From the UHGV virus genome UHGV-0095783: DNA of 23,905 nucleotides; one strand, given 5' to 3'. Shown piece by piece: positions 1,391 to 10,555 of the stretch. How positions within the stretch are numbered: position 1 is the stretch's first letter; each line of letters opens with the position of its first letter. Position numbers and translations under genes: made by a program. Origin of the DNA: a virus. The notes under the pieces are model-generated. The model was not told the origin of the DNA and made no database searches. It was given only the letters and a program-made list of their open reading frames with translations.

Positions 1391-2816
1391 TTTTTATGCG
1401 CCGCCCCATAGCATCGAGGCAGAGCAGGCGGTGATTGGTGGATTGCTTCTGGATGATGACAGCAGTGAGCGCGTCCAGAAAGTTCTGGCGATGCTGAAGC
1501 CTGATTCATTTTACAGCCGACCACACAAAATCCTTTTCGAAGAGATAACCAGAATGCACCGGGAGCAAAAGCCAGTAGATGGCCTGACGCTTTTCGATGA
1601 ACTGGAGCGTAAATCGTTAACGGCGTCTGTTGGCGGTTTTGCTTATATCGCTGAGATCGCAAAGAACACGCCAAGCGCAGCAAACATCGTTGCCTATGCA
1701 ATGCAGGTTCGTGAAACCGCAATGGAACGCTACGCCATCAACCGCATGACTGAAGCGACGGAATTGCTCTATTCCCGCAACGGAATGACTGCAACGCAGA
1801 AGTACGAAGCTATTCAGTCGATTTTCACGCAACTGACAGACCATGCAAAAACCGGATCGCGTCGCGGCCTTCGTTCATTTGGTGAGGTCATGGAAGACTG
1901 GGTTAGCGACCTTGAGAAGCGATTTGACCCATCAGGCGAACAACGGGGAATGAGCACAGGGATCCCATCGCTGGACAGGATGCTGTCACCGAAAGGTCTG
2001 GTGAAAGGCTCTCTGTTTGTCATTGGCGCTCGCCCTAAGATGGGGAAAACGACGCTATACAGCCAGATGGCAATCAACTGCGCAGTGCATGAGAAAAAGC
2101 CCGCTCTGATGTTCAGCCTTGAAATGCCAGGTGATCAGATACTGGAAAAACTGGTAGGGCAGAAGTCTGGTGTTAACCCGAATATTTTTTACCTTCCGGC
2201 GACAAATGACGCTGATGACGGCTATCAGGGTGATTACGATGGTGACTTCAACAGGGCGATCGAAACAGCCAATCGCTTGAGTGAAATCGACCTGCTTTAC
2301 ATCGACGACACGCCGGGATTATCTCTGGCTCAAATCGTCAGCGAAAGCCGTCGAATCAAGCGAGAAAAAGGATGTGTTGGCATGATTCTGGTCGATTACC
2401 TGACACTAATGACCGCTGAGAAGGCCGATCGCAACGACCTTGCTTACGGCATGATCACCAAAGGACTGAAGAACCTTGCCAAAGAGCTTGATTGCGTTGT
2501 TGTGCTTCTGACACAGCTTAACCGCGCATTGGAAAGCCGAACCAATAAACGCCCATTACCAAGTGACTCGCGAGATACAGGGCAGATTGAACAGGATTGC
2601 GATTATTGGGTCGGGATCCATCGTGAAGGTGCTTTTGATGACAGCGTTCCTCCTGGTGAAACCGAACTAATCCTTCGTCTCAATCGTCATGGCAATACCG
2701 GCACGGTGTATTGCATTCAGGCAAATGGCGCTATTTATGACACAGACCAACAGTCTGCTGAAATGCGCCGACGTGAACGCGAGGAACCGCAGTCCAAGAA
2801 GAAAGGAGGATTCTGA
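1380..2816 (+). CDS. replicative DNA helicase, DnaB family (P22 gene 12-like)
   Basis: N-terminus PPHSIEAEQAVIGGLLLD…GGFAYIAEIAKNTPSAANIVAYA parallels E. coli DnaB as recalled; Walker A GARPKMGKT. ATG 1380 preferred (gaggg SD 9 nt upstream); the track ORF opens at GTG 1365. Overlaps the initiator stop. Confidence 0.9.
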   Translation: MTDNFYAPPHSIEAEQAVIGGLLLDDDSSERVQKVLAMLKPDSFYSRPHKILFEEITRMHREQKPVDGLTLFDELERKSLTASVGGFAYIAEIAKNTPSAANIVAYAMQVRETAMERYAINRMTEATELLYSRNGMTATQKYEAIQSIFTQLTDHAKTGSRRGLRSFGEVMEDWVSDLEKRFDPSGEQRGMSTGIPSLDRMLSPKGLVKGSLFVIGARPKMGKTTLYSQMAINCAVHEKKPALMFSLEMPGDQILEKLVGQKSGVNPNIFYLPATNDADDGYQGDYDGDFNRAIETANRLSEIDLLYIDDTPGLSLAQIVSESRRIKREKGCVGMILVDYLTLMTAEKADRNDLAYGMITKGLKNLAKELDCVVVLLTQLNRALESRTNKRPLPSDSRDTGQIEQDCDYWVGIHREGAFDDSVPPGETELILRLNRHGNTGTVYCIQANGAIYDTDQQSAEMRRREREEPQSKKKGGF

Positions 2817-2846
2817 TGACCGTCTACATCACTGAGATAATAACAG

Positions 2847-2875
2847 GGGCTATTTACACAGTAGCCCTTTTTTAT
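2847..2875 (+). terminator. rho-independent terminator after the helicase gene (tR2-like position)
   Basis: 6-bp stem gggcta/tagccc (2847-2852 with 2862-2867), 9-nt loop, then a T7 run at 2868-2874. Confidence 0.6.
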
Positions 2876-2900
2876 TGGATTAAGAACGAGGGGGATCCTG

Positions 2901-3113
2901 ATGGACACCGTTAACGGAATGTGTTCAGACGCACCGCGTGCCAAAAAATGTAAGTGCGGAAAATCACCGACAATATTCGACATGGAGAACGGGTGCCAAA
3001 TCTACTGCGCTAACCACGCTGTTGTGGCGGCCGCGAATTATCGCAGTGCGGTAACGGAGTGGAATAACCTGAAATCTGTTAGAGAGGGAAGTCATGAAAA
3101 AACTAACCTTTGA
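2901..3113 (+). CDS. small Cys-rich protein; possible Lar-family restriction-alleviation protein
   Basis: 70-aa ORF with a CxCG…CxxxC…HxxV cluster and a following AVTEWNN motif that resemble the Lar zinc-ribbon family as I recall it. Sits where lambda has ren, between the replication genes and ninB. The family call is tentative. Confidence 0.45.
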   Translation: MDTVNGMCSDAPRAKKCKCGKSPTIFDMENGCQIYCANHAVVAAANYRSAVTEWNNLKSVREGSHEKTNL

Positions 3114-3534
3114 AATTCGATCTCCAGCACATCAGCAAAACGCTATTCACGCAGTACAGCAAATCCTTCCAGACCCAACCAAACCAATCGTAGTAACCAT
3201 TCAGGAACGCAACCGCAGCTTAGACCAAAACAGGAAGCTATGGGCCTGCTTAGGTGACGTCTCTCGTCAGGTTGAATGGCATGGTCGCTGGCTGGATGCA
3301 GAAAGCTGGAAGTGTGTGTTTACCGCAGCATTAAAGCAGCAGGACGTTGTTCCTAACCTTGCCGGGAATGGCTTTGTGGTAATAGGCCAGTCAACCAGCA
3401 GGATGCGTGTAAGCGAATTTGCGGAGCTATTAGAGCTTATACAGGCATTCGGTACAGAGCGTGGCGTTAAGTGGTCAGACGAAGCGAGACTGGCTCTGGA
3501 GTGGAAAGCGAGATGGGGAGATCGGGCTGCATGA
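3094..3534 (+). CDS. ninB: NinB recombination protein
   Basis: 146-aa translation is essentially the lambda NinB sequence as recalled. Confidence 0.9.
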   Translation: MKKLTFEIRSPAHQQNAIHAVQQILPDPTKPIVVTIQERNRSLDQNRKLWACLGDVSRQVEWHGRWLDAESWKCVFTAALKQQDVVPNLAGNGFVVIGQSTSRMRVSEFAELLELIQAFGTERGVKWSDEARLALEWKARWGDRAA

Positions 3535-4058
3535 CTATCAAAGCAAATACGCCAGCACACGACAAGGACTGCTGGCAAACGCCGCTTTGGCTTTTTGATG
3601 CACTGGATATTGAGTTTGGATTCTGGCTGGATTCGGCAGCGAGCGACAAAAATGCTCTGTGTGCTCACTGGCTAACTGAGGCCGACGACGCGCTCAATTC
3701 TGAGTGGGTAAGCCACGGTGCAATCTGGAATAACCCACCGTACAGCAATATCAGGCCGTGGGTGGAAAAAGCCGCTGAGCAGTGCATACAACAGCGACAG
3801 ACGGTAGTGATGCTTGTGCCAGAGGATATGTCAGTCGGATGGTTCAGCAAGGCTCTGGAGAGTGTCGACGAAGTTCGCATTATCACTGATGGACGGATTA
3901 ATTTTATCGAACCATCGACAGGGCTGGAGAAGAAGGGAAACAGCAAAGGCTCCATGCTGCTGATTTGGCGACCGTTCATCAGTCCTCGACGGATGTTTAC
4001 TACCGTATCCAAAGCGGCATTGATGGCGATCGGGCAGGGCGTCAGGAGGGCAGCATGA
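3531..4058 (+). CDS. phage DNA N6-adenine methyltransferase (Dam type)
   Basis: ATG 3531 overlaps the ninB stop (ATGA). NPPY motif (…[11 protein letters not shown]…) and WQTP…[11 protein letters not shown]-terminal region typical of phage Dam methylases; occupies the ninC/ninD position. Confidence 0.8.
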
Positions 4059-4237
4059 GACGACAGCGACGAAGTATCACCGACATCATCTGCGAAAACT
4101 GCAAATACCTTCCAACGAAACGCTCCAGAAATAAACGCAAGCCAATCCCAAAAGAATCTGACGTAAAAACCTTCAACTACACGGCTCACCTGTGGGATAT
4201 CCGGTGGCTAAGACATCGTGCGAGGAAAACAAGGTGA
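4055..4237 (+). CDS. ninE: NinE
   Basis: 60-aa product [23 protein letters not shown]… matches lambda NinE as recalled; start overlaps the methylase stop. Confidence 0.85.
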
Positions 4238-4404
4238 TTGACCAAAATCGAAGTTACGAACAAGAAAGCGTCGAGCGAGCTTTAACGTGCGCTAACTGCG
4301 GTCAGAAGCTGCATGTGCTGGAAGTTCACGTGTGTGAGCACTGCTGCGCAGAACTGATGAGCGATCCGAATAGCTCAATGTACGAGGAAGAAGACGATGG
4401 CTAA
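4234..4404 (+). CDS. ninF: NinF
   Basis: GTG start overlapping the ninE stop; (M)[47 protein letters not shown]… matches lambda NinF as recalled. Confidence 0.8.
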
Positions 4405-5211: not shown

Positions 5212-5860
5212 TGGCAGCAAATACCGAAATATTTGGGTAGTTGGCGATCTGCACGGATGCTACACGAACCTGATGAAAAAACTGGAGACGATTGGATTCG
5301 ACACCCAAAAAGACCTGCTTATCTCGGTTGGCGATTTGGTCGATCGCGGTACAGAGAACGTTGAATGCCTGGAATTAATCACATTCCCCTGGTTCAGAGC
5401 TGTACGTGGAAACCATGAGAAAATGATGATTGATGGCTTATCAGAGCGTGGAAACGTTAATCACTGGCTGCTTAATGGCGGTGGCTGGTTCTTTAATCTC
5501 GATTACGACAAAGAGATTCTGGCTAAAGCTCTTGCCTATAAAGCAGAAGAACTTCCGTTAATCATCGAACTGTTGAGCAAAGATAAAAAATATGTCATCT
5601 GCCACGCCGATTATCCTTGTGACGAATACGAGTTTGGAAAGCCAGTTGATCATCAGCAGGTAATCTGGAACCGCGAACGAATCAGCAACTCACAAGACGG
5701 GATCGTGAAAGAAATTAAAGGCGCGGACACGTTCATCTTTGGTCATACGCCAGCAGTGAAACCACTCAAGTTTGCCAACCAGATGTATATCGATACCGGC
5801 GCAGTGTTCTGCGGAAACCTCACATTGATTCAGGTACAGGGAGAAGGCGCGTGGGCATAA
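5189..5860 (+). CDS. ninI: Ser/Thr protein phosphatase (lambda NinI / PPase-like)
   Basis: Metallophosphatase motifs GDLHG, GDLVDRG, GNHE; translation from [25 protein letters not shown] matches lambda phosphatase as recalled. The track ORF opens 9 nt earlier at 5180. Confidence 0.9.
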
Positions 5861-6339
5861 GAGAACTAAACCTCACCAAAGAACAGCACGATTGGCTGAA
5901 TGGCTGGCTTGAACTGTGGGGGGCATGGGTTTATTCAGGTCGTCTGGAAAAGCGCATGAGCAGCGTAATAGCTAAGTTCATGGAGAGCGTAGAGCCGGGA
6001 AGAGTTATGACAAGGCCAATGTGTAATGATGATGATGGAATGTTGATTTCTCAGGTCGTCGATTCCGTCATGTACATTGACAAGAAAGCCTTTGGCATCC
6101 TCCTCAGCTACTACGCTCATGGCTCTTCCAAGCACGCCATTGCATCTTACTATCATCGCGTCGCAAGACCTCGCAAGATGTTATGCCGTGGCGGCGGGCG
6201 CATTCAAAAACCATCGCTCGCAACCTGTCGACGGGAAGTTGACGAAATCCTTAATGCCTCGTTGTTTATGATTTACCCGGTTCTGGATAGTGCGTTTAAA
6301 AATCGGAAACGTGTAGAGAAAATTAAACATGTAGCATAG
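5851..6339 (+). CDS. Q: late-gene antiterminator Q-like protein (non-lambda allele)
   Basis: GTG start overlapping the ninI stop. Located between ninI and the lysis cassette. WGAW, P-x-C-x-DDD and YY motifs resemble E. coli prophage QuuD-type antiterminators as recalled; does not resemble lambda Q. Confidence 0.65.
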
Positions 6340-6431: not shown

Positions 6432-6506
6432 GGGTCAGTCGTATAAAGGTCATTACGGAAGGCTGTTAACCTTCTTATCGTGGTTCGAGTCCACGCTGTC
6501 CCGCCA
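6432..6506 (+). tRNA. tRNA-like element, anticodon GUU (Asn) by hand folding
   Basis: 75 nt. Acceptor stem 6432-6438 with 6496-6502 (6/7 pairs), U8, A14, GG in the D-loop, anticodon stem gaagg/ccttc with loop CTGTTAA (anticodon GTT at 6465-6467), 4-nt variable loop, T-arm cgtgg-TTCGAGT-ccacg, discriminator G and encoded CCA. Anticodon loop and T-arm match E. coli tRNA-Asn as recalled. Folded by hand only. Confidence 0.45.
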
Positions 6507-6785
6507 AACATGCTGGTTTAGCTCCAATGGTAGAGGTGGTAAATGCCGAGCAAAGATTACTATCTTAATCGAAGGGCTAGGCTTGCTAAGGCCGTGGAAA
6601 AGTTGGGTGGTCGTTGCGCGAGTTGCGGATCCGAATACTAATGGTCTAGTTATTTCAGACATATTCATCAATTTCAGGCTCACGGGAATCATCCGCTACG
6701 TGCTTTGTTGATAAATCCAGCCCGTGAAGCCTGACCCTTTTCAAACACACACACAGCACCATCCGGAAAATCGGAGGTGAGGCCT

Positions 6786-7109
6786 ATGAAAATGCCATAC
6801 AAACAAGATTTCATCGCTGCGCTACTTGCCGCCAAGGAGCAGGGTATTGGTGCAATGCTGGCTTTTATCATGGCGTATCTGCGTGGTCGCTATAACGGCG
6901 GCGCGGTAACAAAAACGCTAATTGATGCGCTGATGTGCGCGATGATTGCCTGGTTCGTTCGTGACCTTCTGGACTTTATCGGCCTGAGCAGCAACCTCGC
7001 CTACATAGCCAGCGTCTTTATTGGATACATCGGCACCGATTCGATCGGCAATCTTATTAAAAAACTTGCAGCAAAAAAGGCGGGAGTTGACGATGCAAAC
7101 CAGTCCTGA
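6786..7109 (+). CDS. S: holin S, lambda class I, with dual-start motif
   Basis: Translation [27 protein letters not shown]…[10 protein letters not shown]… closely matches lambda S as recalled. ATG at 6786 and ATG at 6792 give the Met-Lys-Met arrangement of lambda S107/S105. SD ggaggtga at 6773-6780. Confidence 0.9.
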
Positions 7110-8207: not shown

Positions 8208-8705
8208 ATGAAATCATTAACCCTCTTCAATCAACCAATTCGTATCGGTGAAGATGGCATGATCTGCCTCACTGATATGTGGAAAGCCAGTGGTAAAAGT
8301 GAATCTGAATCGCCTTACCACTACCTGCGAAACAAGCAGACCAAAGAGTTCTTAGCCGAGCTGGAGAAAAACCACGAATCTGTGGTTTTTACTGAGCGCG
8401 GTGTACACGGTGGAACATATGGCGGGAAGTTTGTTGCTTACGATTATGCGGCTTGGTTAAACCCCGGGTTCAAGTACGCGGCCTATAAAGTCCTCGATGA
8501 CTACTTCACCGGAGAACTTCAGCATCGCAACAGCTTAAGTGCGCAGCTCAACATGAAATGTCATGAGTTTGACCAGAAGAAAGACATGGCGAGCTTCTGC
8601 GGACAAGGGCTGGCAGCATGGCGCTATACGAAGCCAGTGTTGGTCGCTGAGATTAACTCCCTGGCTAACCAGCTGCAGATTACGATCCCCGGGCTTCCGG
8701 GATGA
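8208..8705 (+). CDS. KilA-N domain-containing protein (accessory gene)
   Basis: 165-aa ORF; N-terminal region (…IRIGEDGMICLTDMWKASGKSES…YLRNKQTKEFLAEL…) fits the KilA-N DNA-binding domain pattern as recalled. Lies between the lysis cassette and cos, where lambda has bor on the opposite strand. Confidence 0.55.
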   Translation: MKSLTLFNQPIRIGEDGMICLTDMWKASGKSESESPYHYLRNKQTKEFLAELEKNHESVVFTERGVHGGTYGGKFVAYDYAAWLNPGFKYAAYKVLDDYFTGELQHRNSLSAQLNMKCHEFDQKKDMASFCGQGLAAWRYTKPVLVAEINSLANQLQITIPGLPG

Positions 8706-8979: not shown

Positions 8980-9001
8980 AAGCCCATCTACGGGTGGGCT
9001 T
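8980..9001. other. stem-loop after the 89-aa gene (no U-tract)
   Basis: 7-bp stem aagccca/tgggctt with an 8-nt loop, 9 nt after the stop; no T-run on either strand. Confidence 0.4.
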
Positions 9002-9465
9002 GATAATGAAACCGGAATTTATTCTGGGCCACCAGTTAACGGCAGTACCACGAAACAACCCAAGCCAGTAAGTGGGGAAATAACACTGGCAGCCACTGAA
9101 AGATGAACCTCCTGCCTTATGGCAAAAAAGATTCTTTGTGGTGGCGGACTGATGGAAAGACATCGGTTATTGCAGAGGCCATTCAATGAGTGGTCTCGAC
9201 AATGGCTTATACCCTACACGGGATAACTTAACTGATATCCCTTTTAACGGATAAAGGTATTCAAGCCTGACACATCATGCGCTGTATCGTCGCCGTATTC
9301 CCGCATTAACCATGACCGTAGCCCGACGGGGAATTCCTTCTGCGTGAGTGTGCGGGAATAATCAAAAACGATGCACACCGGGTTATTAACGCGTCAACTG
9401 AACGCGGGGTTGCTCTTCATGTCAGCCAGTCCGGTGCAGGGGTAGAAGAAACCGGACGTTATGGT

Positions 9466-9876
9466 TTAGTGTGGAAACATTTGTGATGTGCTCTGTATGT
9501 TTTCAGTAAAGAGTAATGAATTATCAAAGGTATAGTAATATCTTTTTTGTTCGTGGATATTTGTAACCCACCGAAAAACTCCTGCTTTAGCAAGGTTTCT
9601 TCTGTATTCCTGAAATGTGATCTCTCTGGATTTCAGCTTATTAGAGGTCGTTTCTATAAGATGCCTATCCTTTGAAAATTTGACAGACACAATGTTTTTT
9701 AGGCCCTTTAATAACACTGTATTATCATTTTTTAATACAATATGAACATTCTCTGTGGCTAAATAGTAAATGTAATGTGAGACATTGTGACGTTTTAGCT
9801 CAGAATAAAACCATTGATAGTTTAAATCGTTTCGAACTTTATCAAATATTTGTTTAAAAATGACTACCTGATCCAT
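9466..9876 (-). CDS. DUF1398-like protein (E. coli prophage YbcV/YdfO family), AT-rich accessory gene
   Basis: Minus-strand ORF in a markedly AT-rich block. ATG at 9876 has SD GGAAGG 7 nt upstream, giving 136 aa; the track's 141-aa start at 9891 has no SD. Family call rests on recalled E. coli prophage proteins and the position beside cos. Confidence 0.55.
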
Positions 9877-9933
9877 AGATAAACCTTCCATGTGATATGA
9901 GGGGGCGTAGTCTGCACGATTATCTAAATTGCT

Positions 9934-10167
9934 TCAATCTGGTCTGACCTGTTTTCTGAGCAATTCAGTAATGTCACTCTTTTCTTTGTTTGCTTCAGGA
10001 GAAACTCTTTTTTCTGAGCACAGTCTCCGGCGGCAGGCTTCAATGACCCAGGCTGAGAAATTCCCGGACCCTTTTTGCTCAAGAGCGATGTTAATTTGTT
10101 CAATCATTTGGTTAGGAAAGCGGATGTTGCGGGTTGTTGTTCTGCGGGTTCTGTTCTTCGTTGACAT
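9934..10167 (-). CDS. small RHH-like protein (E. coli prophage YlcI/YnfO family)
   Basis: 77-aa minus-strand ORF, basic N-terminus MSTKNRTRRTTTRNIRFPNQMIEQINIALEQKGSGNFSAWVIEACRRRL consistent with a ribbon-helix-helix fold. Immediately upstream of, and co-oriented with, the DUF1398-like gene (57-nt spacer). Confidence 0.55.
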   Translation of the reverse strand: MSTKNRTRRTTTRNIRFPNQMIEQINIALEQKGSGNFSAWVIEACRRRLCSEKRVSPEANKEKSDITELLRKQVRPD

Positions 10168-10329
10168 GAGGTTGTCCCGTATTCAGTGTCGCTGATTTGT
10201 ATTGTCTGAAGTTGTTTTTACGTTAAGTTGATGCAGATCAATTAATACGATACCTGCGTCATAATTGATTATTTGACGTGGTTTGATGGCGTAGATGCAC
10301 GTTGTGACATGCAGATGATAATTATTATC

Positions 10330-10555
10330 ATTTTGCGGGTCCTTTCCGGCGATCCGACAGGTTACGGGGCGGCGACCTCGCGGGTTTTCGCTATTTATGA
10401 AAATTTTCCGGTTTAAGGCGTTTCCGTTCTTCTTCGTCGTAACTTAATGTTTTTATTTAAAATACCCCCTGAAAAGAAAGGAAACGACAGGTGCTGAAAA
10501 CGAGCTTTTGGGCCTCTGTCGTTTCCTTTCTCTGTTTTTGGCCGTGGAATGAACA
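10330..10555 (+). promoter_or_regulatory. cos: cos packaging site (cosQ-cosN-cosB); cohesive-end sequence at 10367-10378
   Basis: Exact lambda 12-nt cohesive end GGGCGGCGACCT at 10367-10378, preceded by the lambda right-end sequence …gatccgacaggttacg and followed by the lambda left-end sequence up to Nu1, as recalled. Confidence 0.9.

Follow-up and report, generated by a model that had tools for sequence, protein, structure and literature searches.

Bases 2901-4058 of the window, which is the whole 23,905-nucleotide stretch of lambdoid phage or prophage DNA that was analysed, are most probably an ordinary mosaic nin region, of the kind carried by HK97/VT2-type lambdoid (pro)phages, in which two unrelated accessory genes flank ninB. 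The original prediction had described a possible anti-restriction pair at this place, made up of a small ORF resembling the Lar restriction-alleviation proteins and a Dam-type methyltransferase. The claimed features were present, namely a 70-aa Cys-rich ORF (2901-3113), ninB and a Dam-type gene ending at 4058, and their coordinates and order were correct except for the start of the methyltransferase, which is placed at ATG 3531 in exchange for GTG 3471. The interpretation of these features held for the methylase; the Lar assignment found no support in the profile searches, and the assortment of the genes spoke against the idea of a pair.

The gene order of the window is lambdoid. On the + strand, cII (39-317) is followed by an O-like initiator (491-1390), a DnaB-type helicase (1365-2816) and a 32-aa ninA-like ORF equivalent to HK97 gp56 (2816..2914). 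The nin genes continue on the same strand with the small Cys/His-rich protein of 70 aa (2901..3113, PHROG 6308; hereafter gp60-like, after HK97 gp60), the NinB/Orf recombination mediator (3094..3534; PF05772, E=1.1e-54; phrog_72), a phage orphan N6-adenine DNA methyltransferase of the Dam family with predicted GATC specificity (3531..4058; PF05869, TIGR01712), NinE (4055..4237; PF05322, E=8e-44), which shares an ATGA overlap with the Dam gene, and NinF (4234-4404). After NinF the + strand carries NinG, NinH, a phosphatase and Q in that order, past Q a tRNA-Asn, holin, lysozyme and Rz, and last in the window packaging, head and tail genes of lambda type, among them Nu1 (PF07471).

The ninA-like ORF carries conserved module-boundary sequence. 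A Pfam search with it gave no match; its counterparts are named gp56 or NinA in the annotations of HK97, mEp506 and CUS-3, and the equivalent stretch of Sf6 is annotated as the boundary sequence bsq6. Within this ORF a terminator scan located a tR2-type intrinsic terminator (2845..2879, + strand) with a 10-bp stem, a 5-nt loop and a U-run. RNA folding of the hairpin gave -14.3 kcal/mol (z = -4.4), and none of 200 shuffled sequences folded as well. Annotations of the equivalent hairpin call it a lambda-homologous tR2 in the case of Sf6 and a terminator in that of phage 434. The nin region most probably lies in the rightward early operon, directly past the tR2-type terminator.

Close relatives of the region were readily found. 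Bases 2700-4300 were 97-98% identical to PDP110P2, mEp506, IME10, HK97, HF4s and HK544; with HK97, mEp506 and IME10 the identity extended over 1.5-1.6 kb and the gene order was shared. Partial matches to this 1.6-kb region were present in 423 phage records, only 16 of which covered at least 80% of it.

The identification of the methylase as a Dam-type enzyme was confirmed. The protein matched PF05869 with 216 bits (cut-off 28.1; E=3e-64) and the TIGR01712 equivalog, whose full name in NCBIfam is phage N-6-adenine-methyltransferase (phage_N6A_met), with 265.9 bits (cut-off 97.05; E=9.5e-80) over profile positions 1-165 of 165, so that the HMMER comparison with the Dam family returned a full-length match above the curated cut-offs. 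It was 99.4% identical over all 175 residues to the annotated dam of the Stx2 phage VT2-Sakai, and the sequence shows the catalytic (D/N)PPY motif as NPPY, encoded by nt 3732-3743 (residues 68-71 in the 175-aa form). The longest ORF begins at GTG 3471, within ninB. Translation almost certainly begins at ATG 3531 instead, where the start codon and the stop codon of ninB overlap as ATGA, because the annotated relatives all use the 528-nt form (HK97, mEp506, 434 and RefSeq) and the TIGR01712 alignment begins at residue 2 of the protein initiated there.

The orphan methylase of prophage VT2-Sa has been named M.EcoVT2Dam, with the target 5'-GATC-3' (PMC6602927). Because of this published target and the 99.4% identity to VT2-Sakai dam, the window enzyme is likely to be a GATC-specific orphan Dam of VT2/HK97 type. 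A prophage rRNA methylase of Stx phages, M.EcoPA8orf6770P, whose partner PNB-2 is encoded by the adjacent gp6 (PMC10810198), was also considered as an identity for the methylase. It too has been annotated as a prophage DNA adenine methyltransferase of lambdoid Stx phages, and was rejected on account of its MT-A70 family and DPPW motif, its separate gene (gp5) and its dependence on PNB-2.

The methylase could act in anti-restriction. It would be made as a delayed-early protein once N-type antitermination reads through tR2, and would raise the GATC methylation of fast-replicating phage DNA that host Dam leaves under-methylated. Progeny DNA would then be protected from GATC-cleaving, methylation-sensitive nucleases and would be seen as fully methylated by Dam-dependent host processes. 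Such a role is favoured because the gene occupies a delayed-early position behind tR2, because the virion DNA of lambda and P22 is under-methylated by host Dam (PMC8022706), and because orphan methylases of phages and mobile elements are a recognised protective anti-restriction strategy (PMC12707154). An exclusively anti-restriction role is disfavoured, because the hosts already have Dam and because a putative Dam of the Stx phage Phi24B was found among the genes expressed in lysogen cultures (PMC3342100); a second GATC methylase in dam+ enterobacterial hosts looks partly redundant. The Phi24B gene and the window dam were compared by length alone, and both measure 528 nt. The Phi24B authors proposed that the phage Dam supplements host Dam, and work cited by them found that stable 933W lysogeny needs host Dam (PMC3342100). 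Across the window 69 GATC sites were observed where 94.6 +/- 9.3 were expected, a mild depletion out of keeping both with a strong reliance on GATC methylation and with a strong avoidance of GATC.

Instead of evading restriction, the same enzyme might serve the physiology of the phage or lysogen, with candidate roles in the regulation of lysogeny and induction, in replication or the avoidance of SeqA and MutH, or in gene regulation. The partial protection that host Dam already gives against GATC-specific nucleases, the Phi24B and 933W observations, and the extremely wide spread of the methylase family, relatives of which were found in 1903 phage records, all point in this direction. Against it, the gene lies in the delayed-early lytic operon, as would suit an enzyme acting on replicating phage DNA, and anti-restriction is a recognised use of phage orphan methylases. 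A physiological role is considered somewhat unlikely; it would be compatible with the best explanation.

The small ORF is preceded by a strong Shine-Dalgarno sequence (GAGGGGG, 2888-2894) 6 nt before its ATG, overlaps ninB by 20 nt, and has cysteines at residues 8, 17, 19, 32 and 36 and a histidine at residue 39. Three diverged homologues were available from metagenome-assembled lambdoid contigs (L089, L088 and L087). Differences from these at codon positions 1/2/3 numbered 3/5/32, 5/8/35 and 6/9/35, respectively, and the share of differences in third positions was put at 80% or more. dN/dS was 0.13-0.25 where dS was unsaturated. In an alignment of six members C8, C17, C19, G20, C32, C36, H39 and the segment NYRSAVxEWN were invariant, and the core motif was retained even in L171, the most diverged copy found. 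The third-position differences, low dN/dS, Shine-Dalgarno sequence and conserved Cys and His residues together mark the gp60-like ORF as a real gene that purifying selection strongly constrains. The contrary view, that it is conserved module-boundary DNA and no gene, could draw on the very small size of the family and on its lack of RefSeq/PGAP annotation in at least one E. coli genome. Given the codon pattern, the strong Shine-Dalgarno sequence and the conservation of every Cys and His, that view appears scarcely credible and in effect already refuted.

The family to which the gene belongs is narrow. The protein matched phrog_6308 over positions 1-70 of 70 (E=1.4e-53), a PHROG labelled "unknown function", and gave no match in Pfam, NCBIfam or PADLOC. 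It was represented by 16 clusters among 5.8 billion proteins, by 8 representatives when 1.84 billion proteins were searched exhaustively in HMMER with the family profile, by 15 phage records, and in 146 of 5426 complete E. coli genomes; no relevant paper on HK97 gp60 was found in the literature. The Cys/His cluster has the form CxC...C(x3)CxxH and is followed by a helix. This conserved Cys/His pattern makes the protein a probable zinc binder; the AlphaFold model, with a pLDDT of 50, is too unreliable to bear on the matter.

The suggestion that the small ORF is Lar-like was not borne out by profile searches. PF14354 (Lar_restr_allev) gave no match to the window ORF at E<=1 or to any of six family members at E<=10, and NCBIfam gave none to the window ORF at E<=10; in the same library the Lar gene of contig L088, used as a positive control, matched PF14354 with 41.7 bits (E=1.4e-10). 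BLASTP against RalR returned nothing (E=8.7), narrow RalR-family HMMs scored about 0 bits, and hhalign against the RalR subfamily gave a probability of 1.4%, pairing only RSAVTEWN with KEALERWN. A broad Lar profile was assembled from 73 non-identical Lar domains from 80 viral contigs together with RalR and the L088 Lar gene. Seeding the collection with RalR had yielded near-identical copies only, whereas seeding with the L088 Lar gene yielded 80 diverse loci. The profile over-weights KPCPFCG, since that peptide served to fish the Lar sequences, and is biased against the gp60-like ORF. The gp60-like family scored 3.2-6.3 bits on it, and hhalign gave a score of 15.4 over 51 columns (P=0.004, probability 8.4%). 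On calibration, the observed Lar HMM score of 4.1 bits was reached by 7.5% of full shuffles and by 2.9% of shuffles with Cys and His fixed, 9 of 200 column shuffles scored as high in hhalign, and two controls, NinE with 4.0 bits and NinF with 3.1 bits, equalled gp60-like on the broad profile. The apparent Lar signal was therefore removed, as shuffled sequences and NinE and NinF score alike. The exhaustive search of the 1.84 billion representatives with the gp60-like profile recovered the family itself only, with no bridge to Lar, and a PDB sequence search with both profiles returned chance matches only.

Structure prediction returned no Lar fold match. The AlphaFold model of gp60-like, built from the six-sequence alignment, had a pLDDT of 50 and a pTM of 0.25; its strands precede a helix at 39-63, and Foldseek found nothing with it at E<1, a result that is uninformative given the quality of the model. 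A control model of RalR from an equally shallow alignment (5 sequences) reached pLDDT 70 and retrieved entries named 'Restriction alleviation protein, Lar family' at TM 0.6-0.76; no gp60-like protein was among its top 50 fold matches.

What remains of a relationship lies at the level of a motif and was recognised post hoc. The gp60-like elements C17-x-C19-G, C36-x-x-H39 and A50-V-x-x-W54-N55 follow one another in the order of the Lar elements CPFCG, CxxC and A-[ILV]-x-x-W-N, with similar spacing. Among the 6015 ORF segments compared, a composite regular expression found 116 Lar and 12 gp60-like segments and none else; as it was written after the sequence had been seen, it can serve as a lead but does not amount to a test. 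Both groups are small phage proteins (~60-70 aa) with an N-terminal Cys knuckle plus G, a second knuckle and a helix that bears A-[ILV]-x-x-W-N. They differ in the first knuckle, which in gp60-like is CxC, one residue short of the Lar CPFC; in the second, which is CxxH with an extra Cys where Lar has CxxC; in a shorter spacing before the helix; and in the R after WN, which gp60-like lacks. A distant ancestry shared by gp60-like and Lar can tentatively be entertained on this motif evidence, with the balance somewhat against it.

The stronger proposal, that gp60-like is a highly diverged Lar zinc ribbon that alleviates type I restriction and that, with Dam, two counter-restriction functions flank ninB, would account for the shared order and confinement of the motif elements, for the full-length alignments to the broad Lar profile given by both HMMER and hhalign, and for a RalR-like succession of predicted strands and a long C-terminal helix. 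It is difficult to reconcile with the failure of all six members to match PF14354 and of the window ORF to match NCBIfam, with the low hhalign probabilities, with empirical p values of about 0.03-0.08 at which NinE and NinF score alike, with the failure of the gp60-like model to find the Lar fold that the RalR model finds, and with the post hoc origin of the motif. In contig L088 a gp60-like gene adjoins a genuine Lar gene, which shows them to be two distinct genes; the adjacency could reflect tandem paralogy or complementary functions, and the presence of both side by side argues against redundancy. Moreover, the type member, Rac Lar/RalR, has itself been reported to be a non-specific DNase toxin (PMC4041452), so that membership in the Lar family would not settle function. 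With the independent assortment of Dam and gp60-like described below added to this, a restriction-alleviating Lar protein is considered unlikely.

The gp60-like gene fills a slot between the replication genes, or the tR2-ninA boundary, and ninB, the contents of which vary among phages. Phage 434 has ren, annotated as protecting from RexAB exclusion, followed by Orf26 and tR2; Sf6 has four unrelated small genes (46-49); L091 has a genuine PF14354 Lar gene directly before NinB; and L088 has gp60-like, then the Lar gene, then NinB. Throughout the contexts found, gp60-like lay immediately upstream of a NinB-type gene, usually overlapping it, by 20 nt in the window, HK97 and L089. In L087 and L172 the neighbour was a divergent NinB-like protein of 140 aa (PF05772, E about 8e-5), and in L171 it was DUF1367.

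So constant a NinB-type neighbour, kept although synonymous sites are saturated between versions, would be expected if gp60-like were a translationally coupled accessory factor of the NinB/Orf mediator. However, the same ninB allele occurs without gp60-like, with a junction about 12 nt before the ninB start, and 1243 E. coli genomes matched the ninB 5' end as against the 146 with the gp60-like ORF. As the allele is far commoner without gp60-like, any cofactor role must be dispensable. Lambda Orf acts on its own, and the adjacency may merely reflect a fixed variable slot at a module boundary of the kind marked by bsq6 in Sf6. A NinB cofactor is thus quite unlikely. It is also improbable, though slightly less so, that gp60-like is a cryptic, fast-diverged Lar offshoot or an independent small zinc protein acting in counter-defence, with the slot that holds ren, Lar, gp60 or Sf6 46-49 forming a general anti-defence hotspot among lambdoid phages. 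As a best guess, gp60-like would be a small, dispensable factor in host interaction or counter-defence, with a narrow family to itself.

The distribution of the two genes speaks against a pair, since each occurs without the other across phages. gp60-like was present without Dam in HK446, CUS-3 and Salmonella phage 29485 and, within the sequenced part, in the diverged contigs L087, L088, L089 and L172, giving at least seven such contexts. Conversely, the ninB-dam-ninE block was present without gp60-like in 434, HK140, SfI, mEp043 and the majority of the 423 phage records with a match, and Dam occurred without gp60-like in hundreds of phages. Homology with the phages lacking gp60-like broke off some 12 nt ahead of the ninB start codon. 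Judged by this distribution, gp60-like and Dam assort independently, as separate cassettes within a mosaic region, and do not form a functional pair.

The value of these results is mainly for annotation, with little beyond. A gene as strongly constrained as gp60-like nevertheless carried no RefSeq/PGAP annotation in the one E. coli genome inspected. The slot upstream of ninB, with its interchangeable small genes such as ren and Lar, could be mined for counter-defence functions, and if gp60-like should prove to alleviate restriction, one small family would be added to the anti-restriction catalogue.

All of the content of the region is already in public phage genomes: the methylase is a long-known enzyme type, and the small ORF is the already deposited hypothetical gene HK97 gp60. 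The nin region of HK97 (gp56 NinA, gp60, gp61 NinB, gp62 DNA methyltransferase, NinE) has the same genes, order, overlaps and lengths as that of the window, with 97.2% nucleotide identity over 1485 bp and 98.6% identity between the small ORF and Gp60. The two diverge past NinF, where the window has the lambda-type NinG, NinH and phosphatase and HK97 has roi, HNH and RusA; the late genes of the window are also of lambda type. M.EcoVT2Dam shares with the window enzyme PF05869/TIGR01712, NPPY and the slot between ninB and ninE, and there is no difference of substance between them, the specificity of the window copy being predicted. Rac lar adjoins recET, outside the nin region, whereas gp60-like sits within it, in the same pre-ninB slot that a true Lar gene fills in L088 and L091. 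Lambda ren and ral serve counter-defence as accessory genes of early operons in lambdoid phages. Ral is a restriction-alleviation protein of 67 aa (PMC12707154); neither ral nor ren was returned as a gp60-like relative by the searches of protein clusters, phage records or the 1.84 billion representatives. The ren gene of lambda and 434 occupies the equivalent slot, from the replication genes to tR2/ninB, and would be analogous to gp60-like by position and size only.

A copy of the ninA/gp60 stretch with 99.3% identity is present in the complete genome of E. coli MMC-J-0105 (NZ_CM128543.1; locus L170, 3004-3277). The RefSeq/PGAP annotation of this locus leaves the interval that separates the helicase gene from ninB empty, which likely reflects systematic under-annotation of a real gene.

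The 32-aa ninA ORF (2816-2914), upstream of the gene for the Cys-rich gp60-like protein, is mostly composed of an intrinsic terminator of the tR2 type and a conserved module-boundary sequence, the latter corresponding to bsq6 of Sf6. The hairpin at 2845-2869, inside the ORF, was predicted to fold with a free energy of -14.3 kcal/mol (z = -4.4). What is conserved in the ninA ORF may therefore be a signal and not the encoded protein. Within the overlap of ninA and gp60, five G residues follow one another (2890-2894). In protein cluster P0002, a 98-aa "hypothetical protein" (NCBI name) of E. coli with 20 member sequences, ninA and gp60 are fused in frame, consistent with a G run that is shorter by one. 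Such a fusion would provide the Cys-rich domain with a hydrophobic N-terminal segment, and could have arisen either from real slippage variation or from sequencing error.

Across the whole window, 69 GATC sites were observed versus 94.6 +/- 9.3 expected from dinucleotide-preserving shuffles, and all 100 shuffles contained at least 69; GATC is mildly under-represented. This depletion is seen even though the phage has its own gene for a methylase of predicted GATC specificity (3531-4058, + strand).

Further downstream, a tRNA-Asn with anticodon GTT (6432-6506, + strand), detected with Rfam (55.3 bits) as well as with ARAGORN, has the Q antiterminator gene on its left (5851-6339) and the holin gene on its right (6777-7109). 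Directly after Rz, a protein with KilA-N and ORF11CD3 domains is encoded on the + strand at 8208-8705. Between the lysis genes and Nu1 is an AT-rich island (~9000-10500; GC 0.38-0.41 versus 0.5-0.6 on both sides) that contains a DUF1398 gene on the minus strand (9466-9891; PF07166, E=1.7e-46) and looks like an inserted moron.

The variable slot preceding ninB was also compared among other phages. In the diverged lambdoid contig L088 (Logan SRR14415551, 5001-5774), a gp60-like gene directly precedes a genuine member of the Lar restriction-alleviation family (PF14354), after which comes NinB, and in the related contig L091 (~1500-2083) Lar precedes NinB without the gp60-like gene. The small genes of this slot are thus interchangeable, the same position being occupied by ren in 434 and by genes 46-49 in Sf6.
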